DNA of 64,000 nucleotides from Patescibacteria group bacterium (GTDB lineage: Bacteria > Patescibacteriota > Microgenomatia > UBA10105 > UBA927): the NCBI GenBank assembly GCA_035510735.1, contig DATKGN010000013.1:128596-192595 (forward strand), read 5' to 3'. This document shows positions 697 to 61,634 of this stretch, piece by piece. The notes beneath the pieces were generated by a model, which did not search any database, was not told the origin of the DNA, and worked only from the letters and a program-made list of their open reading frames with translations. The translations under genes and the position numbers were made by a program. Positions within the stretch are counted from its first letter, which is position 1, and the number at the start of each line of letters is the position of its first letter.

Positions 697-1161
697 TTAT
701 TCGATGTTGAGAATTTTATATTGCACTTTCCCCGCCGGCGCTTCTACCTCAACTTTTTCACCGACTTTTTTACCCATCAGGGCGCTCCCCAACGGCGAAG
801 AGTGGGAAATTTTCTTTTCTGTCGGATCTGCTTCCCATTCGCCAACCAGCATGAATATTTCCTTTTTTCCGTTGATGGTTAAGGTCACTTTGCAGCCGAC
901 ATCGACCTGGCTTTTCGTGTGGTTCGTGACGATTTTAGCGCCGTGGATGATCTCTTCAAGTTCGAGGATCCGTCCGTCAATAAACGCCAGATCCTGCTTT
1001 GCGGCCGCGTATTCGCTGTTTTCTGACAGATCTCCGAGCTCGCGGGCATCCGCGAGGCGCTTAACGCCCTCCGGGCGCTTCACGTTCAATAATGTCTCCA
1101 GCTCAGCCTTGAGGTCTGATAAACCGGTCTTGGTGAGCACTATTCGATTATTTGTATCCAT
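697..1161 (-). CDS. greA: Transcription elongation factor GreA
   Basis: 154 aa with an N-terminal coiled-coil and a C-terminal FKBP-like domain typical of GreA. Confidence 0.9.
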   Translation of the reverse strand: MDTNNRIVLTKTGLSDLKAELETLLNVKRPEGVKRLADARELGDLSENSEYAAAKQDLAFIDGRILELEEIIHGAKIVTNHTKSQVDVGCKVTLTINGKKEIFMLVGEWEADPTEKKISHSSPLGSALMGKKVGEKVEVEAPAGKVQYKILNIE

Positions 1162-1333: not shown

Positions 1334-1407
1334 GCCCCCATCGTCTAGCGGCCTAGGACGACGCCTTCTCAAGGCGTAGATCTCCGGTTCGAATCCGGAT
1401 GGGGGTA
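1334..1407 (+). tRNA. tRNA-Glu (anticodon CTC), no encoded CCA
   Basis: Manual fold: acceptor GCCCCCA/TGGGGGT, D-stem GTCT/GGAC, anticodon stem ACGCC/GGCGT with loop TTCTCAA (U33, anticodon CUC), T-arm CCGGTTCGAATCCGG. This is the typical bacterial tRNA-Glu architecture. Confidence 0.85.
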
Positions 1408-1459
1408 CATATTAATCCTATAGTTTGACTTCCACACTGCCTCTTGCTATACTTTTCAA

Positions 1460-2080
1460 ATGACTTCCACTGAAAACAGAGTATATCCAGTATCGCCAGC
1501 ATATAGGAAAACGGCTTTAATTGAAGCCCGAATGTTACATGGTGCAATGGATGATAGGATTATTGATAAAACTCCTGCCGCTCTTCGTCATATAGTTGCC
1601 GAAAACGTATTACATTCTTTAGAATCAAAATATACGTGGCCAACAACAATACCAAAGGACATTCATTGGATGAATAATCGCTGGGTTAACTACCTTGCAG
1701 CTATGGATGATATTGAGGCTGTGAAAAAAGGGCAAACGACTAAATCGTATCTATCAATAGCTAACGGTTTAATTGAAACCGCAATCGACATTACTGACAG
1801 AGACGAAATGCTTTCACTAAGGGCGAGACGAATGGGAGTCCCAATTCAAAAGTTTTACCGAACGATAACAGATGCGGATTGGTGGCGATACAGAATAGTC
1901 TATTGTTTCAATAAATCTAAAGAGATGGGAAAGCCTATTCCGTTTCGTGAACGTTCACAGATGTGGGCCCGATATGAAGCGTCGTACGCGCGACTTCACT
2001 ATAGATATAAATCTGAGCCGAATGCTGATTCGTTTAATCGAGCCCGTCTCTTTCATGTACTCGCAAAATGGCTTGAGTAA
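1460..2080 (+). CDS. Hypothetical protein (206 aa), immediately downstream of tRNA-Glu
   Basis: Long ORF with no recognisable motif. G+C looks lower than neighbouring housekeeping genes by eye. Lies between 10-bp direct repeats GGGGTACATA at 1402-1411 and 2174-2183. Confidence 0.5.
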   Translation: MTSTENRVYPVSPAYRKTALIEARMLHGAMDDRIIDKTPAALRHIVAENVLHSLESKYTWPTTIPKDIHWMNNRWVNYLAAMDDIEAVKKGQTTKSYLSIANGLIETAIDITDRDEMLSLRARRMGVPIQKFYRTITDADWWRYRIVYCFNKSKEMGKPIPFRERSQMWARYEASYARLHYRYKSEPNADSFNRARLFHVLAKWLE

Positions 2081-2207
2081 CTACAGAAACTCAAATTACG
2101 CGACTTCGAACTAAAATTCGGGTAAAAATAGCCTCATAACCGTTGACCATCTGTTCGTACTCGGCTAGTATCGGGGTACATAAACGGTTGAGGGTGTTCG
2201 CGGAGTA

Positions 2208-3224
2208 TTATTTAAAATCTCTTATTATAGCTTTATAGTTGGCAAACCGGCGTAATTGATCCAAGAACAATGAAATGCCTCCTTGTTTTACCCCTGTTTG
2301 AAAAAGTTGCAGCATCTCGCGTGTATCCAAAAATTCTTCCTCTGATACCGTAACATTGGAACCAGTATCTGGTTCCACATCGGTATAGTAAAAGGCTTTT
2401 TCTATTTTCGTATCGCTTCCGAACGTGATAGTACCTGCATGATCTGCCACAAGCAAAACGCCAATGTCAACTTTTTGCAACTCTACCGCTCCGTCTCCCG
2501 GAGTGATAAATAGCACATCAATACGTGATCTTCCATCGTTATACATGTTTGCATTGGCTTGTAATGAAGAAGTGATGACCAAACCTAAATCAAATGGATC
2601 TTTTATAATAATTTGTTTGCTCACAAGATGATGAATGAACGCGTGAGGCGCGACATCTATATGCTCCGCCATACCTACGAACCCTATTTTATTATGACCA
2701 TCTATTGCCCCTGTGCGGCCCACGACTCGATCTTGCGTGTTCCCATATCCTATATGAACGCCATTTCTACCGTATACCGGAAATGTATAATTTGATTCGG
2801 CTATGACGTCGGATTGGTTTACGTTCTCCGGTTGAACTCCTTGCTCAGTTGCACGTTGTTCCAATATCTCCAAGTGCGGAAGATGTGTTGCGCAATGTTC
2901 ACAGGTTGTCGGCGACAAAACGTGCATAATATCTGGCAATGGAGGCGTATGATCCGGCTTTTCCGCATCAAGCAATTTTTGAATATTGGTGTCGACAAGA
3001 GATGTGGGCGCGCTGCATGTTGGACATTTAGTCGGTAATTTCACAATTTCTTTAAATCCAATCAATCTGAACTGTGCGTCATTAGGAATTAATGCCAATA
3101 ACGCATTTAATTGGATTTCACTACACCTGACATCGCCTGATGAATAAAAAAGGTTTCGAAGTGTATCTGTAACTTGTGTAGCTGAATACGTTGCTGCCTG
3201 GTATGGCTGTTCTAGAGTAGGCAT
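2208..3224 (-). CDS. Hypothetical protein with a central C4 zinc ribbon (CPTC...CEHC) and a His/Asp-rich C-terminal domain of unknown function
   Basis: 338-aa ORF with two CxxC pairs about 30 residues apart. The C-terminal roughly 200 aa contain GHNKIG, AEHID and HHL motifs suggestive of a metal-dependent hydrolase-like fold, but the family is not recognised. Confidence 0.5.
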   Translation of the reverse strand: MPTLEQPYQAATYSATQVTDTLRNLFYSSGDVRCSEIQLNALLALIPNDAQFRLIGFKEIVKLPTKCPTCSAPTSLVDTNIQKLLDAEKPDHTPPLPDIMHVLSPTTCEHCATHLPHLEILEQRATEQGVQPENVNQSDVIAESNYTFPVYGRNGVHIGYGNTQDRVVGRTGAIDGHNKIGFVGMAEHIDVAPHAFIHHLVSKQIIIKDPFDLGLVITSSLQANANMYNDGRSRIDVLFITPGDGAVELQKVDIGVLLVADHAGTITFGSDTKIEKAFYYTDVEPDTGSNVTVSEEEFLDTREMLQLFQTGVKQGGISLFLDQLRRFANYKAIIRDFK

Positions 3225-3347
3225 GGCACATAGTGTATCACCTGGAACCTATAGTAGCAAGTCGTGTCAAATTCAAACTGTAACCTGATTAAGTTTATAC
3301 GTTTGAAGCTAAAATCGCCCAAATTTGGTCCCAACAGGTGTCACGAA

Positions 3348-3704
3348 TTATTGAAGCATATCGACTTTGAGCGCTTTCGCTGCCCTATACCACCCGCCAT
3401 TGAGTTCAAAAATTTGATATTCAATGGTTAAACGTACTTTTTTACCAACTTTTGTATTACACAACACCGTTGTGGTGCCGTGTTTATTCGCCAGTTCTTC
3501 AGCCAATTCTTTTTTATACGCTTCCTGATCGACACTCTTATCGAGAGTATCGAATGTATGCAATTTTGTAAATTCCGAAGAGGTATATCCGGCAATCTGA
3601 AGCACTTTTTCACTCGCCCACACAAAACTCTTATCGTACAAATCGATAACAAAATCTACAGTTTCAAGATATTTCCTAGCCTCAACCACCACAGGATTAT
3701 CCAT
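3348..3704 (-). CDS. Stand-alone PAS domain protein
   Basis: 118 aa with a PAS-like pattern (FVWASEKVLQIAGYTSSEF...), single domain. Confidence 0.55.
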   Translation of the reverse strand: MDNPVVVEARKYLETVDFVIDLYDKSFVWASEKVLQIAGYTSSEFTKLHTFDTLDKSVDQEAYKKELAEELANKHGTTTVLCNTKVGKKVRLTIEYQIFELNGGWYRAAKALKVDMLQ

Positions 3705-3868
3705 ATATTATCCCACCTATGGTGTACACCCTTCGATCAAATAATTCACCCGCTTCCGGCGGTATCGCTTTATGAACGATGGATCAATATGTACTAAAAT
3801 AGCCTCAAACCGGATAATTATCCTCTAAACATGCTATACTGCATAGACTGAAAGGAGACAAACAAACT

Positions 3869-4069
3869 ATGAACGGTACAATTAAGACGAAAACAGATAG
3901 AGGATTTGGTTTTATAGCTCGCGATGGCGAGACGAAAGACCTATTCTTTCATTCTAAAGATTTAGTAGGCGTCACATTTGACGAACTACAAGTCGGTGAA
4001 AAAGTAACATTTGAAGTCGTAGATGGTCCGAAAGGCCCAAGTGCGAAAAATGTAAAACGAGCTGTCTAA
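3869..4069 (+). CDS. cspA: Cold-shock protein (CspA family)
   Basis: 66 aa reading MNGTIKTKTDRGFGFIARDGETKDLFFH with RNP1/RNP2 motifs; preceded by an AGGAGA RBS. Confidence 0.9.
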   Translation: MNGTIKTKTDRGFGFIARDGETKDLFFHSKDLVGVTFDELQVGEKVTFEVVDGPKGPSAKNVKRAV

Positions 4070-4095
4070 GCTCTTTTTTAACTTTAACCACAAGA

Positions 4096-4125
4096 AAAAG
4101 CTCCGCCTATAAGCGGGGCTTTTTC
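4096..4125. terminator. Rho-independent terminator after csp, possibly bidirectional with the convergent gene ending at 4149
   Basis: AAAAAGCTCCGCC-tataa-GCGGGGCTTTTT hairpin with a flanking A-run and T-run. Confidence 0.55.
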
Positions 4126-4148
4126 GTACACACCGTCCAAGATAGTCA

Positions 4149-5009
4149 CTACCCTTTCCAATTATCCAGAACAAACCGGACACTCCGGCTAACATCTACC
4201 GCGTTACCCACTTCAATCGTATAGATTGTTCCTGGGTTACTACGGGAACTTTGCCGTATAAGATCCGCCAATTCGCGGGCATATTTCCCATCCCCGGGCG
4301 CAAGTTTTTCTATTTTCCCGTCGGGATTATAGTCGCCGACTTGTATAACCTTCGGCTGCAATACTTCAAACGCTTCACCGAGACTAAATTGCCCGTTCCG
4401 CAAAACCGTATCGGTGGGCAATATGGAAACCAAGTTCTTATATCCTTTTTTATGCCACACATCAATAAATTCATGAATCGCATGGATATTCCAAGATAAA
4501 ATCTCCGGTCTGTTATCAGCCGGTCCCCAGCCTAATTTTCGACCATAGAGAACGTCGGTCAAAAGCCATTGTTCAAGTTGTCCGTGCTCTTGAAGAAGTC
4601 TCGTCGGTTCTTCGTGCATCGCCAGGTAACTTGCCCCCAGGCCGACAGCAAGTTGCAAGTGAGTACGAAACATACGGGTCCAGAGTGGCTCGGATTGAGC
4701 CCCAATACCCCCAATAATCTTGAGAACTTCCAAAAACACACGCGGATTTGTACGAAAATCCCGTAGGTCTTTCGCAAAGTCTTTGTACGTTGCGGTAGTA
4801 ACCCCGGCGACAGCCACATCGACATCGGTTTCTTGTTTTCGCGCTAACAGGTACTTCTCAGAGTGAAAACGAAGAGGAACAATTTCAACGCCAATACTCG
4901 CCAAACCAAACTTTTCTCTTATATCGTAGGCTGCGTTCATCGCACGGTCAGGCAAAAGGTATGGAATTTGGCTGATATATATGTTTGGCTGTTCCGGTGT
5001 TGCAGACAT
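4149..5009 (-). CDS. Sugar phosphate isomerase/epimerase-like TIM-barrel protein (xylose isomerase-like fold)
   Basis: Pattern VGDYNPDGK...APGDGKY resembles the metal-binding motifs of AP endonuclease 2/xylose-isomerase-like TIM barrels. The start is taken at MSATPEQ so it does not overlap the GNAT gene. Confidence 0.4.
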   Translation of the reverse strand: MSATPEQPNIYISQIPYLLPDRAMNAAYDIREKFGLASIGVEIVPLRFHSEKYLLARKQETDVDVAVAGVTTATYKDFAKDLRDFRTNPRVFLEVLKIIGGIGAQSEPLWTRMFRTHLQLAVGLGASYLAMHEEPTRLLQEHGQLEQWLLTDVLYGRKLGWGPADNRPEILSWNIHAIHEFIDVWHKKGYKNLVSILPTDTVLRNGQFSLGEAFEVLQPKVIQVGDYNPDGKIEKLAPGDGKYARELADLIRQSSRSNPGTIYTIEVGNAVDVSRSVRFVLDNWKG

Positions 5010-5022
5010 TAGGCTTATAGTA

Positions 5023-5511
5023 CTATTTCTGAAGTAAAAATTCAAGTTCTATCTCATCGCGGATCGGAATGCCGTCGTTGCCGAATCTAGGGATGGGTTT
5101 AATTTTTCTCTGTTCATCGATGGCACCTGTCCGCACCGCGGTGATGACAAATCCCCGCTTCTGGTAAAACCGGAGAGCCATGGTGTTATCATTCGTCGTC
5201 ATGAGCCACAGTCTGCTGCACCCATCCTTTTTCGCCGCTACTTTTACGTGTTCAATGAGCGCCGTCCCCAGTCCCTGTTTTTCGTGGGCTGCATACAATG
5301 CCACGATTTCGCACACGCTCCCCTCTTTTGCGTACATAATAAATCCAACCGGCTTGCCATCATGCACACCCACAAAATTCGGAAGCCTCAATATATTATA
5401 TGTATGTTCCTTACTGATAATATCGATCGACCCCCACAACTTCACGGCCACATCCCTGATCCAGGCATTGTCGCTGGTTATTTTCTGTCTGAACTCAAAC
5501 GAAGACTCCAT
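5023..5511 (-). CDS. GNAT family N-acetyltransferase
   Basis: Acetyl-CoA-binding motif QGLGTALIEHV...RFYQKRGF. Confidence 0.8.
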   Translation of the reverse strand: MESSFEFRQKITSDNAWIRDVAVKLWGSIDIISKEHTYNILRLPNFVGVHDGKPVGFIMYAKEGSVCEIVALYAAHEKQGLGTALIEHVKVAAKKDGCSRLWLMTTNDNTMALRFYQKRGFVITAVRTGAIDEQRKIKPIPRFGNDGIPIRDEIELEFLLQK

Positions 5512-5574
5512 GAGGTCATTATATAAGAAACACTCCTATTTGGGTTAATCAATTAATACGCATTCCTTGACACT

Positions 5575-7467
5575 ATGAGCCGCACACTGTATAACACACA
5601 AGCGTCCTATATTATGCCTGATCCCACCAAAACGCCTCCTCTACTCCTAGCTGATCTTCTCGCACAAATAAACGATCTGAGGCTGGATAAACCCGACTCA
5701 GAACGGAACTGGCACGATTGGCTCACAAGCCTTCACAGAACGGATCTGGAAGCGCACCTAACTCCAAAAACCCCCATGAGTTATTCCTCCGCCGAATATA
5801 TGTTGCCTGGGCTCGCAGCGGAAGGCGGCCTGGGAGCGCTATCACGGGATCATTATTTGCAGGCTGTCCTTTTGGGAATCCCTGCCCATTTTTTCGGGTT
5901 ACTGTATAAAGAACAAAAAATCCAAACAATTGAAACCGACGACAGCGGCAATTACTGGCAAAAAATACATATGGAGAATTTGCCCACTCCTGAAGAATTA
6001 CACTTCAAACGCATAAACTCACTGCACGTCGCGATGAACGGAGAATACGGATTAGATACGATTCCCGTGTATCTCCACTCACTCAGTACCACAAAAACGC
6101 CGCTGTATCTCCTTCAGGTTGAGGGCGGCGTCTACCCCAAGGATAATAACAGCAATGATCGGTTATGGAATAATGTCGTTTTAGGATTCGGCCAGCACCA
6201 GATCAATACACAACTCAAAGAACGTAAGGTTATCGACGACATCGCATTTTTCCATACCAACGAATCCGCTATGGTGATTAGTGTTCTTGCCGCTCTTGAC
6301 GATGCAACACTACAAAATGGCGACACGCTAGAAGTATATGATCAGGCTCTTGCGGCAATTCGAGTAAAAGATATACTCACCAACCACACACTCGTCCCAG
6401 CCGCGGAGGCAACATTTTCACGGGACCAGTGCGAGACATTTATTTTGAGCAACCTCAAAAGCCGGCAGATGAAAAAACAACTCACGAAATTTATCGCACA
6501 TCACGACGGACAACTCAAATTGCTGGACCTTGCCCTCTATCTTGCCGGTACAAAGAACGGCGTAAGCGAAGATCATTCACGGATAGCAGCGAGGGTATTT
6601 CATCTTGATTTCCATGCCGTAACGAACGGCATTTATGAAGAAAGCTGGGCCGCCGATATTGTCGACATTTTGAGTCACTATAAAATCATTGACCGTTTCG
6701 GCCTTCCTACTGCCGACTGGGTTAAGCATGTCGAAGAGATACCTACTGAAATTCTTATGAAATCAAAACGCACAAAGGTCGAAGCGTTCCGGCAGTTTCT
6801 TCTGTCGGGAGGGAGACGTGACCAATTCGGAAATATCGTTGTACTTCCCGAAAACCCGCTCATTATCGGCGACGCCCGGCGGTTTGCCGGATATAAGCGA
6901 CGGACGATTGCATTCTCATATTTCGATGTCTTTCAGGATATATTGGAACATTATCCCAATGCACACATATTTATTTCCGGAAAAGCCCACCGCCACGACC
7001 AGCTGCCGATTGCGGATCTCTCCCACATACTCAAAAGTATTGCACATAATGATATCTTCCGGGCTCAGATTCATTTTCTCCCCAACTGGGAGCCGAAATT
7101 CGCCAAAATGCTTATTGGTGCAAGTCATGTGTGGGTTAATAACCCGAGGGTCGGATTTGAAGCATGCGGTACATCAGGGATGAAGGCCGGTTTAAACCTC
7201 GCGCTCCTGGTTTCTACAAAAGACGGTTTTCTGGCAGAAGTTCCCCAGAACGCATTTTATGCAATCAAAGGCGAGTCAGATTCAGCCGAAGAGCTCGCGA
7301 GTTATTATGCCAAACTCACGCAGGCAATCGCCGATGTGCATAGTCCCGAAGCTTGGGCCACAAACGTAAAACGTCTGTGGAAAAGTAATTTCCTCCATAT
7401 CACAAGCGGCGCCCGTATGCTCGCCCAATACCTTAACATGGCGCTACCACAGGAAGAAAATGTTTAA
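5575..7467 (+). CDS. glgP: Alpha-glucan (glycogen/maltodextrin) phosphorylase, GT35, short form
   Basis: N-terminal LPGLAAEGGLGALSRD (the GNGGLGRLA-type motif) and C-terminal EACGTSGMKAGLNLAL (the pyridoxal-phosphate lysine motif EASGTSGMK) of GT35 phosphorylases. Confidence 0.85.
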   Translation: MSRTLYNTQASYIMPDPTKTPPLLLADLLAQINDLRLDKPDSERNWHDWLTSLHRTDLEAHLTPKTPMSYSSAEYMLPGLAAEGGLGALSRDHYLQAVLLGIPAHFFGLLYKEQKIQTIETDDSGNYWQKIHMENLPTPEELHFKRINSLHVAMNGEYGLDTIPVYLHSLSTTKTPLYLLQVEGGVYPKDNNSNDRLWNNVVLGFGQHQINTQLKERKVIDDIAFFHTNESAMVISVLAALDDATLQNGDTLEVYDQALAAIRVKDILTNHTLVPAAEATFSRDQCETFILSNLKSRQMKKQLTKFIAHHDGQLKLLDLALYLAGTKNGVSEDHSRIAARVFHLDFHAVTNGIYEESWAADIVDILSHYKIIDRFGLPTADWVKHVEEIPTEILMKSKRTKVEAFRQFLLSGGRRDQFGNIVVLPENPLIIGDARRFAGYKRRTIAFSYFDVFQDILEHYPNAHIFISGKAHRHDQLPIADLSHILKSIAHNDIFRAQIHFLPNWEPKFAKMLIGASHVWVNNPRVGFEACGTSGMKAGLNLALLVSTKDGFLAEVPQNAFYAIKGESDSAEELASYYAKLTQAIADVHSPEAWATNVKRLWKSNFLHITSGARMLAQYLNMALPQEENV

Positions 7468-7476
7468 GATACTTCA

Positions 7477-7508
7477 GAAATGCTTCACTCGGGCATTTCA
7501 CTTTTTTT
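7477..7508 (+). terminator. Rho-independent terminator after glgP
   Basis: GAAATGC-ttcactcgg-GCATTTC hairpin followed by ACTTTTTTT. Confidence 0.6.
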
Positions 7509-7560
7509 GATTCAATAAATACGTTCCAATCTCGTCCGACAGGCGTATGTAAAGAATGTA

Positions 7561-8061
7561 TTGAGATGCTATAATTCCTCTTGTATGAAAACCGGTATTA
7601 CGATTCGACGTGCCATGATTGATGATTTAGCCTCGATTTGTGCATTAAGTCAATTGTTGTTTGAACATGATGGCCAGTTTACCGAGGAATTTAATATGTC
7701 ATGGTCCCGCAGCAAAGAGGGACAAGAGTTCTTCACAAAACAGCTAAAAAGCAGAAAATCATTCATCCTGCTCGCGCAGGATGGAAATAAATCTGTGGGA
7801 TATACCCATGTTACATTAGATAAGTTTGCCTGGCGCGCATTCAATCCGATCGCTGAAGTGGTAAATTTGAGTATCGCTCCCGAATATCGGGGACAAGGTA
7901 TCGGAACCGCGCTGTTTCATGAGGCAAAAACGTTAGCCAAAAAACGGGGAGCCAAACGGATGAGTGTGTCCGCTGTATCAGCTGATATCAGAGCTCTCAA
8001 CTTCTATAAACGGCACGGGTTTAAGGATTTCAGCGTTGGCATGGTTGTACCGCTTGATTGA
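7561..8061 (+). CDS. GNAT family N-acetyltransferase
   Basis: Motif RGQGIGTALFHEAKTLAKKRGAKRM...NFYKRHGF. Confidence 0.8.
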   Translation: MRCYNSSCMKTGITIRRAMIDDLASICALSQLLFEHDGQFTEEFNMSWSRSKEGQEFFTKQLKSRKSFILLAQDGNKSVGYTHVTLDKFAWRAFNPIAEVVNLSIAPEYRGQGIGTALFHEAKTLAKKRGAKRMSVSAVSADIRALNFYKRHGFKDFSVGMVVPLD

Positions 8062-8082
8062 ATTGAATTTGCGAAAAATGCG

Positions 8083-8376
8083 TTACGACCAGGTTGATTT
8101 AGCAGAGTGATAGAGATTGTTCCCCCAGGTGAGCATACCCTGCGCCCACGCCTTATGATCGATAACACCGTTCCGATATTCTTCTTCCAGTTTGTCATAG
8201 GAATCGCAGAATTGTTTAAAACTTGGCTTAAATGTTGGGGTGGGCGGAAACGTTAAAAGGGCGTTTAAGTTTTTGCGGGTGAGTTTAAGGAAAAGTTCGA
8301 TTCTCCCCTTTTCTTTGGTGAAACTGACGAGCGACCAATTACCAATCTGCGTCAGATTTTCTGCAGTATCAAGCAC
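8083..8376 (-). CDS. Hypothetical small protein (97 aa)
   Basis: ORF only; no recognisable motif. Confidence 0.3.
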   Translation of the reverse strand: MLDTAENLTQIGNWSLVSFTKEKGRIELFLKLTRKNLNALLTFPPTPTFKPSFKQFCDSYDKLEEEYRNGVIDHKAWAQGMLTWGNNLYHSAKSTWS

Positions 8377-8451
8377 TAAATCACGCTGGTTTTGAACTGA
8401 ATAATTACTGAGTGTTGAATGGTGAATTATATAGGGGTATTATACTCGTTT

Positions 8452-9957
8452 TTATAGGATTTTACTAGTCACCAACTTGGGTGGAGTTGCAAGAATCGAT
8501 TGATAGAGCATCATGTATTGTTTAGCCGATTCAGTCCATGAAAAATCACGTTTCATCGCTGATTCTACCATGCGGTAATGTTTTTTCGGATTGGTGGTTT
8601 TCACACGGAGAGCACTTATGATCATATTTTCAAGTTCTATGGAAGATGAGTTGGTAAATATATAGCCGTTCTTGCCATTTATGACCGTGTCATTAAGGCC
8701 GCCCGTCGCCCGTGCAATCGGCAGCGCCCCATAGCGCATCGCATTCATTTGGATAAGGCAACAGGGTTCATAATAAGATGGGATCATCATAAAATCGCTC
8801 GCTGCATAAATGAGTGAAGCGAGTTCATCATCATACACCGTGACAACGGCAATCCTGTCAGGATTAAAAGCGCGCAGGAGATGAAACCGCTCTTCCCACG
8901 ATTCTTCTCCCTGACCCATAATCACAAACTGACACTCCTTAAGGGCCTCCCGCACAATCATTCGGTGAATGAGGTCAATCCCCTTTTGCTTCTGGTCGAA
9001 CCTGCCGATGTACCCGATCACCGGAATTGACGCATTGACGGGCAAACTTAGCCGCTCCTGCAGCTTTTTTTTGTTAATCTGTTTACCACGGGTAATATCG
9101 ACAACTGCCGCATCATTGACGCTGTCTTTTTCCTTGGCAGAATACCGAACACCCAAAAATATATTGGTTGCGGGATTTTTCAATGTATAGTCAATACCGT
9201 TTAATATAGCCGAAGTTTTATACATATTTCCCCTGACGGCAACATCGAGTCCCGCACCGTGTTCTTCCGTCTGGATTTCTTTGAGATACGTCGGCGACAC
9301 CGTATTGATCCAGTCAGCGTTTACGATTCCTTCTAATAACAAATTAAATTGATGCGTTTCTGATTCCCATTTAACCATAGACAATGATTCGCGCGGTATG
9401 TGTAATTTATCGGCAATGACGGCAGCAAACGACCGCTGATGGGATATACAGTGAATCGTAAGAAGAGTCTTAATATTTAAATTATTTACTTTTATTAAAA
9501 GAGGAATTAACCCGCAATGATTATCGTTACAGTGAACGATATCAGGACGCCAGGTACCGAACAATCCAGCTTTGAGAGCCTCGACAACTGCAAGTCCGAA
9601 TATAACGAATGTTTCTGGAATCGGTTTATCAAAATACTCTTTATTTCCGATGAGGTACACAGGAATGTCGGTTGTTAAAAAAAATATTTTATGAATGGTG
9701 ATCGCGACTTTCTGTTTTCCGTAGAAAACGGTAAATTCCGCTACCTTCTTCTTGCGTTGACCCAATACGTTTAATGCTTTGTAATGAGGTATCACCAGGC
9801 GGATATCTACCCCCATGGATTTAAGTGCTCGAGGAAGAGAACGCGCAACTTCACCTAACCCTCCGACTTTTAAGAACGGCTCAACTTCCCATACTGCGAA
9901 TAATACATTTAGAATTGTAGGCTGCTTTGAAGTTTTTTTTATTGGCTTTTGAACCAT
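8452..9957 (-). CDS. glgA: Glycogen synthase (GT5, ADP/UDP-glucose dependent)
   Basis: N-terminal VWEVEPFLKVGGLGEV (the KVGGLGDV signature of GlgA) and overall GT-B architecture. Confidence 0.85.
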   Translation of the reverse strand: MVQKPIKKTSKQPTILNVLFAVWEVEPFLKVGGLGEVARSLPRALKSMGVDIRLVIPHYKALNVLGQRKKKVAEFTVFYGKQKVAITIHKIFFLTTDIPVYLIGNKEYFDKPIPETFVIFGLAVVEALKAGLFGTWRPDIVHCNDNHCGLIPLLIKVNNLNIKTLLTIHCISHQRSFAAVIADKLHIPRESLSMVKWESETHQFNLLLEGIVNADWINTVSPTYLKEIQTEEHGAGLDVAVRGNMYKTSAILNGIDYTLKNPATNIFLGVRYSAKEKDSVNDAAVVDITRGKQINKKKLQERLSLPVNASIPVIGYIGRFDQKQKGIDLIHRMIVREALKECQFVIMGQGEESWEERFHLLRAFNPDRIAVVTVYDDELASLIYAASDFMMIPSYYEPCCLIQMNAMRYGALPIARATGGLNDTVINGKNGYIFTNSSSIELENMIISALRVKTTNPKKHYRMVESAMKRDFSWTESAKQYMMLYQSILATPPKLVTSKIL

Positions 9958-10088
9958 CTATATGAGAGTATAACACAAATAGATTATATTGGCGCGCTAT
10001 TTTGCACCATAACAATATACAATAACACCTTTTGACGGCCTGAACCAACATACTTATGGTATTTTTCTGATGACTGAAGGCCTAAACG

Positions 10089-10658
10089 CTATCGTTCTCC
10101 AATAACAACCCGAACGACCATATCATCATTCGGAATATGGAGGAAAACATATTCCATGAGAAGCTTTCTGCCTTTGGTGATGACGCTATTGCAATCAGCG
10201 GGAGCAGCGGCTGTTAGATTTGTCGAAATGTTATCCATGAGATAACACACGTGATCTTTTGCAAGCGATTTTGAAATGGACCCACCGGGGATAAGATGGA
10301 CAGTCCATAATAGTTCTCGAGCATTAATAACCTCCGCGTCTTCAGATGACCAATACGAAAGAATAAATTGATTTTTTATGGTATCAACTGAAAGTACACT
10401 GCCAATAAGTGAATGGGCAAAATTAAACGACGCGCCCACACTAACAGGCTTTTTGGGGAGCGCGTTTGCCACCATATAGCCGATAAAGATAATAATGATA
10501 AGCGCGGTGCCGATGAGTTGCTGTACGCGGAGTCTTGATTCACTGAGCATTACCGCCGTCCGCGGATTCATCTGCACTTTCGGATTTTTGGGATTATCGG
10601 CAATGAACCGAAATGCCTGTGAGATATAAAATTTTTTGCCGCTGCGGACTTGCTGCAT
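10089..10658 (-). CDS. Hypothetical membrane-anchored protein
   Basis: Single TM helix (LIGTALIIIIFIGYMVANAL) followed by a soluble domain; no family recognised. Confidence 0.45.
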   Translation of the reverse strand: MQQVRSGKKFYISQAFRFIADNPKNPKVQMNPRTAVMLSESRLRVQQLIGTALIIIIFIGYMVANALPKKPVSVGASFNFAHSLIGSVLSVDTIKNQFILSYWSSEDAEVINARELLWTVHLIPGGSISKSLAKDHVCYLMDNISTNLTAAAPADCNSVITKGRKLLMEYVFLHIPNDDMVVRVVIGER

Positions 10659-10715
10659 ACGTTTATCGTATTATCTCACTTATTCAAAAGAAATGAACTA
10701 TTGTACAATAGGTCC

Positions 10716-11081
10716 ATGGATCAGACTGAATTTGAATCGCTCGTCAGAGAATCGCTCGACAGTCTTCCAAAAAAAATTGCCGAGAGATTAAATAATGTTG
10801 AAGTCATGGTCGATGTCTGGCCTGATGAAGAGGAACTACGGGCAGGTAATATAAAACCGGGAATGACACTTTTTGGATTATACCGCGGCGTTCCGCAAAC
10901 ACACCGGATAAACTATAACGCTGCAATCCCTGATAACATCACGATATTCATGGGGCCGTTTCTTTCGATATTCGGTGATAACCGTCTGCTTTTAAAACAA
11001 GAGGTTAAAAAAACCGTTCTTCATGAAATCGGCCATCACTTCGGCATGAGCGATGAGGAGATCAGGGCTGCAGGGAAATAA
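10716..11081 (+). CDS. Putative Zn-dependent metallopeptidase (DUF1025 / zincin-like)
   Basis: C-terminal HEIGHHFG (HExxH) motif; start chosen at MDQTEFES (the ORF track starts it at 10650). Confidence 0.6.
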   Translation: MDQTEFESLVRESLDSLPKKIAERLNNVEVMVDVWPDEEELRAGNIKPGMTLFGLYRGVPQTHRINYNAAIPDNITIFMGPFLSIFGDNRLLLKQEVKKTVLHEIGHHFGMSDEEIRAAGK

Positions 11082-11082
11082 T

Positions 11083-11706
11083 TCAGTATCCATTTGGACG
11101 CTGACCTTGGCTATTTCCGGAATTACTTCCCGGATATCCCTGCGGAGGCGGTGGTACGATCCGATTATAAAAGCGCGGCGTTGGTCCACTTGCACCGGTC
11201 GAAACTCCCGTCGATTCCATAGGTTCACCGAAAAACGCCGTTGAGATGTTATTTGTTTTAAGCCAGTTACGGAAATTCGTTTCCAGCTGAGTCAATTCCT
11301 GTTGTTTCGCCTTGATCGCTGCAAGTTGACTGAGGATTTCCGTTTCCTGTGCTTGAGAGATTTTCCCTTCTTTGACGGCCTGGTCCAACCGTGCCTGAGG
11401 GTCACCCATCTGCCCGATTGAACCCGTTGCACCGGATGGCCCCCACATATATCTGTAACCGGAACCGGTCGCTCCGTATGGAGCTACATTGGGCACATTC
11501 ATCAAACCCGTGCTTGTATTCCCGCCTAATCGTCTTAGGAAATTCTGGACTACACCAATAAATCCGCCTCCGGTTTGAGTTTCTGCTCCTTTAACCTGAC
11601 CCGCCATGCCGTCAAACGGCCAAAATGCCAAGACGCTCGTCGGGAGGATAATAAGAGTGATGAATAATGCAACTGTTACTGATGTACCGAAAACGTTCTT
11701 TTTCAT
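11083..11706 (-). CDS. Secreted Gly/Ser-rich hypothetical protein
   Basis: N-terminal signal peptide (MKKNVFGTSVTVALFITLIILPTSVLA), low-complexity G/S/T/P-rich composition, central coiled-coil. Confidence 0.5.
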   Translation of the reverse strand: MKKNVFGTSVTVALFITLIILPTSVLAFWPFDGMAGQVKGAETQTGGGFIGVVQNFLRRLGGNTSTGLMNVPNVAPYGATGSGYRYMWGPSGATGSIGQMGDPQARLDQAVKEGKISQAQETEILSQLAAIKAKQQELTQLETNFRNWLKTNNISTAFFGEPMESTGVSTGASGPTPRFYNRIVPPPPQGYPGSNSGNSQGQRPNGY

Positions 11707-11795
11707 AGAGCCTCCTTAACACGTAATCTATATAGTATATACACGTTCATTCATTTGGCACAAATATGTAATCTAACGTATAATATCTTCATTGT

Positions 11796-12320
11796 ATGGT
11801 ATCTAACAAAAAGGCTCTACCAATACTCAGCGCGTTCGCTATATTTACGCTTCTTGGACTAACGTCCCCATCTGTGCATGCGGCAACAACTTATCCGACC
11901 AGGCGAACACCACAATATATTTACGTATATGGGACACCAACTCCGTTTGTCCGCTCCCTACTTCGACGGAAAGTAGCACCCAAAAAAACATCACCGTTTA
12001 ACCAGATTATCGGCAAGATTGGTCCGGCGATCCTGGGCAGCGGCGGTGTCATTCTCGGAGCCGTTGTGGCTTGGTATACGTTACGGCGTAAAACAAAGGC
12101 ATTTGACGTATATTTTGAACGTATTTCCCATGCGCAGGAGAAGTATCAGCAAACAATAGCCCTCGGTGTTATGGACAGAGATAAGGCGCTATACATTCTT
12201 AAAACGGAACTCGTGTCCATACAGGAAGAGGTAGAAATGGCTGTAGCGAGGAAAAAACTCGATCAGGAACAGCTTATCGCAGTGAGTAATAAAATCGAAC
12301 GGATTCTCAATAAAAAATAA
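11796..12320 (+). CDS. Hypothetical membrane protein (signal peptide, one TM, C-terminal coiled-coil)
   Basis: ORF plus hydrophobicity pattern. Confidence 0.45.
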   Translation: MVSNKKALPILSAFAIFTLLGLTSPSVHAATTYPTRRTPQYIYVYGTPTPFVRSLLRRKVAPKKTSPFNQIIGKIGPAILGSGGVILGAVVAWYTLRRKTKAFDVYFERISHAQEKYQQTIALGVMDRDKALYILKTELVSIQEEVEMAVARKKLDQEQLIAVSNKIERILNKK

Positions 12321-12338
12321 CTATAGTCTCTTGCGTGG

Positions 12339-12815
12339 TTACTGGATAACACCGTTGGTATCGGTGATGATGCCGTAATCATCACGGTAGTTTATATCGC
12401 GGTCACTACCCGCATTATCATCAACCGGTGTCATTTCGATAAAATAAAGAGTATCCCCCTTCTTAACAACATACCGCTGATACTGATCATCAGAATCCTT
12501 TGGCGTCAAATCAACCTGCGTCGATCCGTCGGGCAACATTGTCGTATTCACACTAAACCCTATGGTCGCTTTTTTTGCATCAACGCTCATGGGACCAGGG
12601 ACAACTTGAAACGCAAATTTCGCAAGCTGTGAACCCGGAAGCTTCATCCCTTTGGATAGCATTTGCGGTCTGCCGCTTGGTGACGGCGGTTTCTTGCTCT
12701 GCGCACTAAGCACCATTGCAGTCGGAACCTGAGACCGGTTTCGTTTCATGACAATATATCCCGTTTCAACAATAACCGCGAGCATTAAACCTGCGATGAG
12801 AATATTTTTATTCAT
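12339..12815 (-). CDS. Hypothetical membrane-anchored protein
   Basis: N-terminal TM helix and a soluble beta-rich domain. The perfect palindrome TTGTAATATATATTACAA lies 5 bp upstream of the start. Confidence 0.45.
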   Translation of the reverse strand: MNKNILIAGLMLAVIVETGYIVMKRNRSQVPTAMVLSAQSKKPPSPSGRPQMLSKGMKLPGSQLAKFAFQVVPGPMSVDAKKATIGFSVNTTMLPDGSTQVDLTPKDSDDQYQRYVVKKGDTLYFIEMTPVDDNAGSDRDINYRDDYGIITDTNGVIQ

Positions 12816-12938
12816 AATATTGTAATATATATTACAAAGAATAAATTACCATTATTTAAACATTTTGTAAAGTAGATCATTACCATACTTAATTACGTAT
12901 ACTCGTAATTTACTTCAACTTATGTATAATACCCTTAC

Positions 12939-13817
12939 GTGAATACACCAGCATCATCTATATCTTTTCAAATTAAACAACGTACAATTTTTATACTATT
13001 GTGTGCAACCGTATTCTTCTTATGTTCTCCTTTATTACTTAAAGGACAATTGAACGTCTATGCTGCTGTTGTTATCAATGAAATTCTCCCAAAACCAAGC
13101 GACCCTGCTAATCAATGGATAGAACTTTATAACACCGGAACGGACACTGTATCTCTCAACCAGTGGAAAATCGAAAATACTTCAAACGGCGGCAAATCCT
13201 ATATTATCGCAGCCAGCGGCTCGATATCAGGACATGGTTTTTATCTCATTAACCGATCTCAATCGGCAATCCCACTAAGTATTGAAGGTGATACCGTAAA
13301 ATTATCCGATCCCAATAACACAGCAGTCGACACTCAAAGCTACCCGGGGACACTGGGGTTTAATACTTCGATGGGCAGGATGCCCGATGGAACCGGCCTC
13401 TGGACAATCTGTGCACCTACTGCACCGGATGGCCCCTACGCTTTTACACCAAATCTGCCGAACAACTGTCCAATTCCAACCCCATCACCCACTCCAACAG
13501 TAACACCAGTACCCACGAGCACACCGATTCCCACCGATACGCCGACAGATGCACCCACTCCGACTGCAATGAGAACGTTCGCACCGATAACATTCGGCAA
13601 TGTTTTGGGAACAACAAATTCTCTTACCCCGACTCTTACGCCCTCCCCGACACCCGGCGATGTATTAAAAATTGTAATACCAAATGCCATAGTGGTCCCT
13701 AAAACACTTGCAATTCAAATCGGTATAATCGTTGCTGCTTGGATACTTATAGCCGTGACGGCAACAATAAGAGGAAGACGAAAACGCCAAAAACGCGCTA
13801 TACCGCCGGTTAGTTAA
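12939..13817 (+). CDS. Lamin tail domain (LTD) surface protein with Pro/Thr-rich linker and C-terminal membrane anchor
   Basis: VVINEILPKPSD...NQWIELYNTG is the LTD signature. It is followed by a PTPSPTPTVTPVPTSTP linker and a C-terminal TM helix plus RGRRKRQKR tail. Confidence 0.65.
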   Translation: MNTPASSISFQIKQRTIFILLCATVFFLCSPLLLKGQLNVYAAVVINEILPKPSDPANQWIELYNTGTDTVSLNQWKIENTSNGGKSYIIAASGSISGHGFYLINRSQSAIPLSIEGDTVKLSDPNNTAVDTQSYPGTLGFNTSMGRMPDGTGLWTICAPTAPDGPYAFTPNLPNNCPIPTPSPTPTVTPVPTSTPIPTDTPTDAPTPTAMRTFAPITFGNVLGTTNSLTPTLTPSPTPGDVLKIVIPNAIVVPKTLAIQIGIIVAAWILIAVTATIRGRRKRQKRAIPPVS

Positions 13818-14319
13818 TAATTTCAACTCCTCCGAATACACCCACTCCCTTCACGTGAAGCCTCGGAGATGCGTCTGTGCCACCCGAAGTTAGGTTGGAA
13901 AATCCGCCCATAACTCCTGCACCCTCTGAACTCACGCGCCAACCCTTGGGGATAATCACTTTAAGACCTCCGAAAACAGCAACGAGCTCTAATTCCATTG
14001 TTTTTGCTTTACTTTTTACCTCTGACAAATCAATTTGCATACCGGAGAACACTGCGACGGCTTTTCCACCCGTGAATGATGACGTAATCACCCGTTTATC
14101 CGATCCACTAAATATTGCAATTTCATTAATCTCATCTTGGTGTAATTCGGACGAACGAACAGCACCCGCACGACTGCACCATTTTCTGAAAAGAAGAATC
14201 CTCAACCCGATAAAGATAAATATAAACGGTATTGCATAATGAAACCAATCAAAATTTGTTAACGCAGAGAGACCGATAAAGACAAACAATATTCCGAAAA
14301 TTAACCGCCGTGTTGTCAT
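13810..14319 (-). CDS. LiaF-like / DUF2154 cell-envelope stress protein
   Basis: Two N-terminal TM helices and a C-terminal beta-rich domain with the repetitive GG(V/L)K(V/I) pattern typical of the LiaF C-terminal domain. Confidence 0.5.
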   Translation of the reverse strand: MTTRRLIFGILFVFIGLSALTNFDWFHYAIPFIFIFIGLRILLFRKWCSRAGAVRSSELHQDEINEIAIFSGSDKRVITSSFTGGKAVAVFSGMQIDLSEVKSKAKTMELELVAVFGGLKVIIPKGWRVSSEGAGVMGGFSNLTSGGTDASPRLHVKGVGVFGGVEIIN

Positions 14320-14717
14320 TTTATATACCTTCTTAACGTTTCTAATATTGTGGTAATTTCTTTAGGCAATACGAACGTGCTTGCAATCGATGACCCAACT
14401 GATTGCAAACTGAAAATAAAGACTATCCCGAATACGAATACAGCCAGGAAAAAGAGAATTGCATCCGCTAAAACGGAACTTCCAAGTAGTATTTGAAGAC
14501 CCATAAAGATAAAGATGACCGGCCAGAACTGCCCAATCGTATGCCAAACCACCCATGGGACGACACCGGCAGTATTTAAGAGAAGTATAATACCGGCAAA
14601 AAGGAACATGACGCCCGCAACGGGCCTCCCTGAATCGCGATGATGGTGGCGTTCGTGATCATACGTATCGCCAAAAATTTCTACATGTGGTTCGTGATTC
14701 GAATCTTTCTCATGCAT
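14316..14717 (-). CDS. Small polytopic membrane protein with His-rich N-terminus (LiaI/DUF5668-like)
   Basis: Overlaps the downstream LiaF-like gene by 4 bp (ATGA), suggesting an operon. Confidence 0.4.
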   Translation of the reverse strand: MHEKDSNHEPHVEIFGDTYDHERHHHRDSGRPVAGVMFLFAGIILLLNTAGVVPWVVWHTIGQFWPVIFIFMGLQILLGSSVLADAILFFLAVFVFGIVFIFSLQSVGSSIASTFVLPKEITTILETLRRYIK

Positions 14718-14777
14718 ATAGAATAATTATAGGCAAAATAATGCCATTTTTATGTAAGGCAACTAACAAAACAATAT

Positions 14778-15053
14778 TTATGGAGCTTTGAGGAGATTTG
14801 CAAATTTAAGCTTGTATAGATTTTCAAGAAGGTCAGCCCCCGCGTAGCCGGCGAGTAGCGACGTCCGCCAATCGGAATTGATAACCACTCCGGCGGCAAG
14901 ACCCGACAGAACAGCGACAATGATTGAAAGGGTAAGATATTTCCATTGAAATGGTTGCGTTGGCGGCAACATCTGCGATTTTGTTATCCCGACCAAGCCT
15001 CGTACCAGGCCCCCAAAGGCCCCGGCTAATACCTGCATCGTTGTTAATGACAT
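14778..15053 (-). CDS. Small membrane protein (2 TM)
   Basis: ORF plus hydrophobic pattern. Confidence 0.35.
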   Translation of the reverse strand: MSLTTMQVLAGAFGGLVRGLVGITKSQMLPPTQPFQWKYLTLSIIVAVLSGLAAGVVINSDWRTSLLAGYAGADLLENLYKLKFANLLKAP

Positions 15054-15068
15054 GCGGTGACCCCTTCT

Positions 15069-15401
15069 TTAAAATCCCTGCATTGAGTTAAACTGGCCCA
15101 TCTGTTTATTTACTGCATTGACAATATCGACGGTCCACTTAACAGCTAAAAGCAGTACGATGACGGTAATGACCATTGCGACTGTGCCCACGATTTTTGA
15201 TTTCTGATCATCCCGCTTCAGATATCGCCACCCCCATATAACACCCATCGGTGGAAGAAAAATGCTGCCGAGATAGAGCATCGCCTGACTCTCGGGGGTA
15301 ACGGAGGGCGGTTTTTCATGGAGATTTTTACCGCAATTGAAACAAAAATAATCGCTCAGGCGCACCTCTGTATGGCACACCGGGCAAAAGCTTTTATCCA
15401 T
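15069..15401 (-). CDS. Zinc-ribbon membrane protein
   Basis: Start chosen at MDKSFCPVCH...CFNCGKNL (C4 ribbon) followed by two TM helices. The longer track ORF would overlap the beta-lactamase gene. Confidence 0.45.
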   Translation of the reverse strand: MDKSFCPVCHTEVRLSDYFCFNCGKNLHEKPPSVTPESQAMLYLGSIFLPPMGVIWGWRYLKRDDQKSKIVGTVAMVITVIVLLLAVKWTVDIVNAVNKQMGQFNSMQGF

Positions 15402-15475
15402 ACTCTTATTGTACACAATTACGCTCTGATACGTCATATAAGAGACACATAAACCGTCTATGATACAATCGCTAC

Positions 15476-16411
15476 ATGGTCGCGCGACACCAAAGAAACC
15501 ATCATGGAAACAGGGGTACAATGCTTCTTTTTTTCATAGCGCTTCTTGGCATCGGCATATATGGAGGAACCAGTTTTTACAATTCGCGTAAAATAATATC
15601 TCCTATCAGTGAAGTAAAAAAGAAGCAATCGTCAATTTTCAACCTGCTACACCCACAAAAAAACCCCGACACCCTTAAAACGGCAATCAAAAATCAAATT
15701 GGAGACGCGTGGGAAAATTATTCTGTTTATGTCGTTGATTTCAATTCTCCGTTTGTCATGGCGATTAACGAATCAACGATCTTTACTGCTGCTTCAGTCA
15801 ACAAAGTACCAATCCTCGCCGCCCTTTATGCGGAAGCACAAAGCGGCACTATCAACTTTGACACCGTTATAACGCTCCAGGAAGACGACATACAGGATTA
15901 CGGCACGGGCAGCATCCGATATGATCCGCCGGGCACAACGTATACCATTAAGACCCTTGCCAGACTTATGATGCAAAAAAGCGATAATACGGCGGCCTAT
16001 CTGTTGGCCAACTATACTATCGGATTGGATGTGGTTCAAAAATATGTAAATGGCTGGGGTATGACACAAACCGATATGGCAAACAACAAAACGTCAAATA
16101 CCGACATGGCAATTCTATTCAAAAAGATCATGGATAAAAAGATAACGAGCCCAGCACTATCGGTAGAAATGTTGGGATTTCTCAAAGACAGTGATTTCGA
16201 GGATCGCCTGCCGGCGCTTCTGCCTAAGGATGCCATCGTTTATCACAAAATCGGTACGGGAACTGGAACCGTCCATGATGTTGGGGTCGTTGTCCACGGG
16301 GACACGGAATATTACATCGGAATATTCACAAGCGATATCACTGATGAAGAACAGGCGTCAACATTAGCAGCCGAGGTGTCAAAAACAGTCTACGATTTTA
16401 TGGTGAGGTAA
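15476..16411 (+). CDS. Class A beta-lactamase-like serine hydrolase
   Basis: S-x-x-K (SVNK), SDN and KTG-like (KIGTGTG) motifs in the correct order. An alternative start at 15521 (MLLFFIAL...) gives a signal-anchor. Confidence 0.75.
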   Translation: MVARHQRNHHGNRGTMLLFFIALLGIGIYGGTSFYNSRKIISPISEVKKKQSSIFNLLHPQKNPDTLKTAIKNQIGDAWENYSVYVVDFNSPFVMAINESTIFTAASVNKVPILAALYAEAQSGTINFDTVITLQEDDIQDYGTGSIRYDPPGTTYTIKTLARLMMQKSDNTAAYLLANYTIGLDVVQKYVNGWGMTQTDMANNKTSNTDMAILFKKIMDKKITSPALSVEMLGFLKDSDFEDRLPALLPKDAIVYHKIGTGTGTVHDVGVVVHGDTEYYIGIFTSDITDEEQASTLAAEVSKTVYDFMVR

Positions 16412-18820: not shown

Positions 18821-18907
18821 AAAAATTTATATAAAATGATATTTAGCACTCAATTATAACAACTGCTAAAATCGACGTCAACCCCCCAAAAAATTCATAC
18901 CCTTCTG

Positions 18908-61557: not shown

Positions 61558-61634
61558 CACTGTTCACTATACAAAACATAGACCAATTCTCCTTTAATGG
61601 ATTACGTTTACTCTTAATAAGAGTAAACCATTTT

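Follow-up and report, generated by a model that had tools for sequence, protein, structure and literature searches.

The stretch of DNA analysed here, which we call the window, is 64 kb of the genome of an uncultured Candidatus Gottesmanbacteria (Patescibacteria) bacterium, and our subject is two genes, orf206 and orf338, that lie directly 3' of its tRNA-Glu gene. The tRNA (anticodon CTC) is intact on the plus strand, at 1334–1408 as called by ARAGORN and at 1334–1407 as called by Rfam (RF00005, 58.9 bits), and is the seed of a variable region. It is followed by orf206 (206 residues, 1460–2080, plus strand) and then by orf338 (338 residues, 2208–3224, minus strand), which is convergent with orf206. 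These three features had been reported in a sequence-only reading of the DNA made by a model, and the ARAGORN and Rfam calls and the open reading frame (ORF) coordinates bear them out. In our view, the interval from 1409 to about 3790 is probably the tRNA-proximal end of a 14 kb flexible region and represents integrase-less cargo accreted at a tRNA-seeded hotspot.

Several short features accompany the two genes. The last nine nucleotides (nt) of the tRNA together with the following CATA form the first copy of a 13 nt repeat, ATGGGGGTACATA (1399–1411, plus strand), and on the orf206 side the 1411/1412 junction is followed by TTAATCCTATAGTTTGAC. A sigma-70-like promoter, TTGACT-17-TATACT with an extended TG (1425–1453, plus strand), ends 6 nt before the orf206 ATG and overlaps the trailer motif CCTATAGTTTGA, which is common to the related loci L009 and L094 (L and P numbers denote the loci or contigs and the proteins that were compared). 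Beyond orf206 are the first copy of a 27 nt repeat, AAAATAGCCTCATAACCGTTGACCATC (2125–2151, plus strand), and a fragment resembling a tRNA-Glu 3' end, GTTCGTACTCGG-CTAGT-ATCGGGGTACATA (2153–2182, plus strand), which includes the second copy of the 13 nt repeat (2170–2182) and lies 25 nt from the orf338 stop codon. Upstream of orf338 there is a conserved block, CTTGCTACTATAGG (3248–3261, minus strand). Next come pas118, a PAS-like ORF of 118 residues (3348–3704, minus strand), the second copy of the 27 nt repeat (AAAATAGCCTCAAACCGG..., 3796–3822, plus strand), which is just 5' of the promoter of a cspA-like gene, and that gene itself, which encodes a cold-shock domain (3869–4069, plus strand).

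Two orphan proteins and their neighbours

The proteins encoded by orf206 and orf338 are soluble and cytoplasmic, each gene having its own promoter and no terminator lying between the convergent pair, and both are annotated as 'hypothetical' in their NCBI records (HUD20239.1 and HUD20240.1). Neither could be assigned to a family by eye in the sequence-only reading, and the same holds for searches of Pfam, NCBIfam, PHROGs and PADLOC, in which neither has a match above threshold, and nor does orf298, an ORF farther from the tRNA. No remote homologue was detected among the 10,691 ORFs of all of the loci compared, and analysis of the two proteins revealed no nuclease, NTPase or other effector motif.

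The orf206 protein is basic (pI 9.6) and rich in tryptophan (seven residues), and contains no transmembrane segment. A search of 5.8 billion proteins returned only the protein itself, and scans of metagenome and viral contigs and tblastn searches of phages and plasmids gave no homologue. Acetylglutamate kinase, which was suggested by a sequence search of the PDB (E = 1.2), was rejected as a relative. The reading frame spans 218 codons from stop to stop, a length for which we estimate a chance probability of about 1e-6 per frame segment at 41% G+C, and orf206 is probably a real gene.

The orf338 protein is acidic and comprises an N-terminal helical part, a four-cysteine zinc ribbon and a beta-rich C-terminal domain. 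It belongs to a family of three known members, its two homologues being the only ones among about 15 billion proteins. The search of 5.8 billion proteins again returned only the query. When 1.84 billion cluster representatives were searched exhaustively with phmmer, one true relative emerged, P0005 (341 residues, 44% identity), and a profile search added P0007 (342 residues). Both are encoded on 1.4 kb Logan contigs and both are approximately 44% identical to the window protein. A further phmmer match, P0006, was spurious and is a surface protein with Cna-B repeats.

The zinc ribbon that had been noted as CPTC...CEHC holds up well in this family: the CPTC (C67 and C70) and CEHC (C108 and C111) cysteines are invariant in all three members, which also keep C34 and H117. 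In the C-terminal half the invariant residues are N162, Q164, D165, H199, R232, S233, D253, H262, E284, T287 and S289. Judged by this conservation, orf338 is a real gene under selection, with a predicted four-cysteine zinc ribbon. The protein most likely binds zinc through the four cysteines and most likely has a conserved polar site in its beta-rich domain; our guess is an accessory function related to nucleic acids or mobile elements. The CPxC...CxxC arrangement with its four invariant cysteines is like the knuckles of Zn_ribbon_ZPR1 and rubredoxin-like proteins, but the knuckles of orf338 are separated by a 37-residue spacer and its flanking domains match nothing known. The first knuckle alone gives sub-threshold zinc-ribbon matches (E = 0.06–0.2). 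A match to 6jsa_A in a sequence search of the PDB (E = 0.8) was rejected. The GYxNxQD and GM motifs led us to consider a PP2C/SpoIIE assignment for the C-terminal domain; this was also rejected, as none of the three members has a Pfam match to it at E <= 10 and the aspartate of the PP2C DGxGG motif is missing from the family, which has F-V/L-G-M instead. The AlphaFold2 models of orf338, with pLDDT (predicted local distance difference test) scores of 39.6 (single sequence) and 40.5 (three-sequence alignment), were too poor to use.

The 14 nt block CTTGCTACTATAGG is invariant upstream of all three genes of the family (window 3248–3261, L006 at about 258–271 and L087 at about 163–176) and is identical across the loci although the proteins are only 44% identical. 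It sits 5' of a TATAAT-like box, and may be either an operator or, within a promoter of the form TTGCTA-17-TA(C/T)A(C/A)T, a -35 element under unusual constraint. The ORF fragments that flank the orf338 homologues in L006 and L087 show no likeness to pas118 or orf206.

The neighbours on the distal side are of a different kind. The sequence-only reading had described a stand-alone PAS protein. The 118-residue ORF is present as described, while its PAS matches are sub-threshold only: it scores 16.7 bits against Pfam PAS_3/PAS_9 (E of about 0.009), below the gathering cut-offs of 25.6 and 27, its L015 orthologue scores 18.8 bits against a PAS family, and a profile search of the PDB gives LOV domains at an E value of about 0.5. 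A PAS-like fold is plausible from these profile matches. Nor is pas118 orphan cargo: homologues with 64–75% identity are found in L008 (two copies) and L015, and in L015 the orthologue (75% identity) ends 5 nt from the same tRNA. Homologues of pas118, the cold-shock gene and two further ORFs of 189 and 150 residues are scattered through the variable regions of relatives. By this distribution we class these four as shell genes, with orf206 and orf338 as the only orphans. As a separate observation, the cold-shock gene and its leader (3809–4126) give a weak match to the cspA thermoregulator RNA (26.3 bits, gathering threshold 78, E = 4e-4).

The tRNA-Glu 3' flank in related genomes

A scan for GreA using one genome per species gave 80 loci, and the nearest GreA matches were all from Gottesmanbacteria metagenome-assembled genomes. 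In the window greA (697–1161, minus strand) is divergent from the tRNA, with a class I LysRS gene beyond it (up to 618, minus strand). The divergent pair of greA and tRNA-Glu(CTC) is kept in approximately 34 Gottesmanbacteria-like loci, so the 3' flank of the tRNA is directly comparable between them. Clustering of the flanking ORFs gives a backbone with the order GreA, tRNA-Glu, a beta-lactamase-like protein (c0), Lon (c1), c2 and c3. The distance from the tRNA to c0 is only 1–31 nt in L026, L031 and L032, is 0.5–6.4 kb in L018, L034, L039, L011, L067, L009, L036, L046, L017 and L016, and reaches 14.07 kb in the window, the largest value seen. What fills this gap differs in almost every genome. 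The tRNA-proximal genes of relatives include those for Fic (L028 and L021), a PIF1-like helicase (L029 and L046), a PD-(D/E)XK nuclease (L013), DUF2207, an acyltransferase and a glutamine amidotransferase.

In relatives this site shows two kinds of trace of integration. Seven independent loci have a gene for a large serine recombinase (about 500 residues) that adjoins an intact tRNA-Glu(CTC) at its 3' end and is read towards the tRNA: L007 (1–696), L014, L017 (8293–9798), L033, L040 and the metagenome contigs L089 and L096 (802–2283), of which the last two carry an identical tRNA end. The Resolvase, Recombinase and Zn_ribbon_recom domains were identified by Pfam in L017 and L096 and by homology in L007, L014, L033, L040 and L089. 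The mutual identity of these proteins falls to 33%, and the ORF in L007 extends 13 codons into the tRNA. In addition, 18 nt fragments of the tRNA-Glu 3' end (two mismatches or fewer) lie 3' of the intact tRNA in eight relatives: L012 (two fragments), L024, L028, L029, L030, L035, L038 and L046. Several of them correspond to a different tRNA-Glu allele from that of the resident gene. Taken together, the variability of the gap, the recombinases and the tRNA fragments indicate that the site is a genuine integration hotspot, and the insertion-prone tRNA 3' flank proposed in the sequence-only reading is supported for the lineage.

The comparison of synteny that had been proposed as a check places the two orphan genes within this variability: tblastn and hidden Markov model (HMM) searches detect neither orf206 nor orf338 in any of the 34 related GreA/tRNA-Glu loci or in another 16 that carry this tRNA. 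The closest relative is L007 (CAYLQG01), with 97% identity in GreA and approximately 97% in the intergenic DNA. It is collinear with the window through the 10-mer GGGGTACATA, which ends at 1411, and diverges at the 1411/1412 junction into the C-terminal part of its serine recombinase, where the L007 contig ends. A tblastx match between L007 and the window at about 24.6 kb is spurious and falls within a sulfur-cluster assembly gene. An orf338 homologue is found beside a tRNA in another organism: in L087 a distance of 194 nt separates the P0007 gene from the 3' end of a tRNA that is 5'-truncated by the contig end (Rfam 17.9 bits, model positions 43–71), the two being convergent with no orf206 between. 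The T arm and the G1-U72/A73/C ending of this truncated tRNA match the tRNA-Glu(CTC) of L017, L024 and L033. Rarity decreases with distance from the tRNA, with no homologues of orf206, two of orf338 and several of the PAS-like and cold-shock genes.

Two relatives help to set the limits of the insertion. In L010, 57 nt separate the tRNA from the cold-shock gene behind it, which gives the right-hand limit of a 2.4 kb insertion in the window relative to that genome (1409 to about 3790); relative to L015 the limits are 1409 to about 3345. The island proposed in the sequence-only reading has limits close to those of the L010 comparison, although the variable segment as a whole runs on to 15475 and is six times larger. 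Besides the genes already described, this interval (1409–15475) contains orf298 (4149–5045, minus strand) and a mixture of orphan, shell and metabolic genes that includes two GNATs (one at 5023–5511, minus strand), a zincin and an LTD protein, together with several further ORFs without a Pfam match. Also within it are a phosphorylase-like gene (5575–7467, plus strand) and a starch-synthase-like gene (8452–9957), which suggest glycogen-type metabolism (5575–9957) and for which the relatives have no counterpart at the locus. The conserved backbone resumes at 15476–21507 with c0 on the plus strand and Lon, c2 and c3 on the minus strand; Pfam identifies c2 and c3 as the beta and alpha subunits of a 2-oxoacid:ferredoxin oxidoreductase, and Lon is 82% identical to that of L009. 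No recombinase family was found in Pfam scans of the ORFs between 1409 and 21507.

Two other observations on tRNA genes can be recorded here. Among L008 (about 3718–3850), L024 (about 468–600), L110, L012 (9435–9560), L030 and L038 there are some second tRNA-Glu copies into which about 50 nt are inserted after position 11, and some pieces resembling a tRNA 3' half whose T loop holds a hairpin insertion of 27–32 nt (CCGGTTCG-insert-GAATCCGG...TAC), with a terminator behind each. Such odd copies may represent scars of integration, landing pads, or tRNAs that are split or contain an intron. The second tRNA of the window, tRNA-Gln CTG (61487–61558), is likewise followed directly by an ORF of 252 residues (61635–62393, about 35% G+C, no Pfam match), which may be another tRNA-proximal orphan gene.

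The repeat of the tRNA end

The sequence-only reading had drawn attention to a 10-mer that spans the tRNA 3' end and recurs beyond orf206. The 10-mer GGGGTACATA is indeed present at 1402–1411, and its second copy, the only other one in 64 kb, lies at 2173–2182 and not at 2174–2183. The repeat grows to 13 nt with 12 of 13 positions identical (1399–1411, ATGGGGGTACATA, and 2170–2182, ATCGGGGTACATA). If a 5 nt gap is allowed, 2153–2182 can be aligned with the final 25 nt of tRNA plus trailer, 21 of the 25 positions being identical, and this segment may be a degenerate, displaced tRNA fragment. The DNA between the two copies is 771 bp long and holds one gene, orf206, with its promoter.

The likelihood of such a repeat arising by chance was estimated by placing a mock tRNA end at every seventh nucleotide across the window and counting 10-mer direct repeats. 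A repeat was found within 1 kb for 2.8% of the mock anchors and within 3 kb for 8%; pairs of this kind number 108 in the window. Among plus-strand matches in the window the gapped one ranks first, two other sites scoring at least 12, and has a p value of roughly 0.02–0.05; for the repeat overall the value is about 0.02–0.08. The duplicates of the tRNA end in relatives are longer, at 18–19 nt (T loop GAATCC... to the tRNA end), and an 18 nt tRNA-Glu fragment with two mismatches or fewer, of the kind present in eight relatives, is absent from the window. Under the repeat model, the empty site would read ...ATGGGGGTACATA joined to AACGGTTGAGGGTG and the circle junction ...GGCTAGTATCGGGGTACATA joined to TTAATCCTATAGTTTG. 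In an empty site the tRNA would continue straight into AACGGTTGAGG... or into the cspA-like promoter region (3796 onward).

Other short repeats were noted near the tRNA. An imperfect 27 nt repeat, AAAATAGCCTCA(T)AACCG..., at 2125 and 3796 brackets orf338 and pas118. The window has no other copy of its core, ATAGCCTCA, and the repeat resembles the region upstream of the cspA-like gene in the window and in L030. In L098, L103, L109 and L110 the sequence directly 3' of the tRNA is TAGCCTCAATTTAGCCTCAAA, and the copy at 3796 is preceded by GTAC with the same spacing as that from the tRNA end to TAGCCTCAA in these four loci. These links fit layered insertions, but they are suggestive and serve as leads only. 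A 14 nt inverted repeat (13 of 14 positions), GTACATATTAATCC and GGATCAATATGTAC, relates the tRNA end and trailer (1405–1418) to a site before the cold-shock promoter (3781–3794), with statistics like those of other chance inverted repeats nearby. Because the matches are too short, this inverted 14-mer and the shared motifs TAGCCTCA and CCTATAGTTTGA were not used in the explanation. A further sequence resembling the tRNA-Glu 3' end, AATCCATGGGGGTAGATA (9804–9821, minus strand; 17 of 18 positions with a 2 nt gap), is probably a chance match, since it is inverted and lies inside the starch-synthase-like gene.

Origin of the tRNA-proximal genes

The mechanism that we favour can be outlined as follows. 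Integrative elements of this lineage would recognize the tRNA-Glu(CTC) 3' end, and their insertion, there or immediately downstream, would not disrupt the tRNA. The agent would be the large serine recombinase in the seven relatives that carry it and elsewhere another agent, one that leaves duplicates of 18–19 nt of the tRNA end. Each newcomer would push older DNA farther from the tRNA, and decaying elements would leave cargo without a recombinase. By this account orf206, which has no relatives and is flanked by the imperfect 13 nt copy of the tRNA end, would be the newest piece; it is the most tRNA-proximal gene and probably the most recent acquisition. The rare zinc-ribbon gene orf338, found directly against the tRNA in another organism, would be older, and the PAS-like and cold-shock genes would be older still, or native. 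The simplest course of events, which for orf206 is the one proposed in the sequence-only reading and to which we give somewhat less than even chances, is that orf338 itself once abutted the tRNA; orf206 would then have inserted in between, restoring the tRNA end and moving away the copy that is now degenerate.

A number of observations weigh against this interpretation. Neither a recombinase nor a remnant of one was detected across the window by six-frame recombinase HMM searches or tblastn, so that the earlier statement that no integrase remains stands. The repeat exceeds chance expectation only marginally, being exact over 10 nt, 12 of 13 beyond that, and short. The trailer 3' of its first copy, ATATTAATCCTATAGTTTGAC, resembles the trailers of L009, L094 and L087, a likeness that a simple attL/attR model does not predict and which argues against att duplication. 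For these reasons, and given the longer duplicates of relatives, the argument that the 10-mer is an att core is weak. Serine recombinases are moreover reported to leave identities of only about 2 bp (PMC5704250) and so would not create the window repeat. Five contigs of the same population from other samples (L001–L005) are identical and all carry orf206 and orf338, and thus show no presence/absence polymorphism of the two genes within the population. The metabolic genes in the 14 kb interval need not be foreign. Genomes of the candidate phyla radiation (CPR) are rich in orphan genes in any case. Finally, synteny on the other side of GreA (GreA–LysRS) is also patchy among relatives, which makes the absence of orf206 and orf338 from them partly a matter of ordinary divergence.

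Several of these points would also suit native, fast-evolving CPR orphan genes that happen to lie beside a tRNA, the 10-mer being a chance match and the differences between genomes reflecting loss of gene order at genus-to-family distances. The 3–8% chance level of the repeat, with 108 comparable pairs in the window, the lack of mobility genes, the patchy GreA–LysRS synteny, the other ORFs of the interval without a Pfam match and the native appearance of the trailer are all in keeping with such an origin. Base composition is too: the region has a G+C content of 41.0%, whereas the window averages 43.7% (sixth percentile; third-position G+C, GC3, of 0.34 and 0.35), as the sequence-only reading had perceived, but the conserved cspA-like (39.8%) and PAS-like (38.9%) genes are equally low, and low G+C is therefore not a mark of foreign DNA here. 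We nevertheless consider a native origin unlikely, as integrative elements demonstrably use this site in relatives, the homology with L007 breaks off precisely where the repeat ends, a homologue of orf338 likewise lies at a tRNA 3' end and, in about 15 billion proteins, the orf338 family has only three members. Much less probable is the alternative that orf206 and orf338, perhaps with the PAS-like protein as a sensor, form a new defence module against phages or plasmids. Fic, PIF1-helicase and PD-(D/E)XK proteins are among the hotspot cargo of relatives, a zinc ribbon with conserved polar residues could suit a nuclease or sensor, and the orf338 family is rare and fast-evolving. However, the defence HMM check proposed along with the idea of defence cargo gave no PADLOC-DB 2.0 matches at E <= 1 for orf206, orf338, pas118 or orf298; PHROGs likewise gave none and no phage or plasmid homologues were found in PHROGs, INPHARED, IMG/VR or PLSDB. 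The two genes are also convergent with separate promoters, the orf338 homologues occur without orf206 or the PAS-like gene, and neither protein has a recognizable nuclease, NTPase or effector motif. It is very improbable, too, that the 771 bp orf206 segment is a still-mobile, integrase-less mini-cassette moved in trans by a recombinase of the genome or community. The repeat does bracket exactly one gene and its promoter, and three independent assemblies break at 1380–1382: contigs L002, L004 and L005, from three sequencing runs, begin inside the tRNA at these positions, as expected from a branch near 1411 in a graph with k = 31, which implies a co-occurring genome whose sequence is the same as far as the tRNA end and different from there on. 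Co-occurring species with an identical tRNA (of the L007, L009 and L014 types) explain this branch as well as strain polymorphism does, no contig lacks orf206, orf206 is found nowhere else and the repeat is short.

Accretion of integrase-less cargo at the tRNA, the reading that we prefer, has a precedent in another bacterium. The same model has been published for the tRNA islands (tycheposons) of Prochlorococcus (10.1101/2020.12.28.424599). Like those islands, the present locus has an intact proximal tRNA, hypervariable downstream content and scattered partial tRNA copies; on our reading it would also have cargo outlasting a degenerate element and newcomers pushing older material distally. It differs in that the host is a CPR bacterium, in that the recombinases of its relatives are large serine rather than tyrosine enzymes and in that the window has no element and only a 13 nt imperfect tRNA copy. 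The tRNA 3'-end location, the lower G+C and, as a candidate, the direct repeat of the tRNA end at the far side are shared with the tDNA islands catalogued by Islander (PMC4383910). In contrast to those islands, there is no integrase aboard, the repeat is 10–13 nt where typical fragments are far longer, and the bracketed segment is a single gene; of the properties used by Islander, an intact tRNA and variable presence among related genomes are found here and an integrase inside the island is not. The proteins of about 500 residues with Resolvase, Recombinase and zinc-ribbon domains at the edge of the insert in relatives are like those of phiC31/Bxb1/Tn4451-type elements (PMC5704250), but their genes abut an intact tRNA-Glu in seven loci and there is none in the window. 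By these comparisons the object in the window is real but of an ordinary kind, namely integrase-less accessory genes at a tRNA-seeded flexible region.

The association of serine recombinases with the tRNA, seen in relatives and without an example in the window, is the most interesting by-product of this analysis. Serine integrases have been stated not to be known to target tRNA genes (PMC4383910), and the recurrent adjacency would, once confirmed, extend what is known of the targets of this class of integrase. One could go further and suppose that a Gottesmanbacteria family of serine recombinases is specialized on the tRNA-Glu(CTC) 3' end, with orf206 and the orf338 family as delivered cargo or accessory genes and with the 13 nt repeat and the position of P0007 as footprints, but we regard this extension as doubtful. 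The new proteins, one very small family and one singleton, are a curiosity and not a discovery until a structure or phenotype is available. For the organism, we infer that textbook tRNA-seeded accretion takes place in a small-genome bacterium of the candidate phyla radiation, where mobile elements are poorly charted, and the interval defined by GreA, tRNA-Glu, the beta-lactamase-like protein and Lon provides a site at which occupancy can be read across dozens of Gottesmanbacteria.

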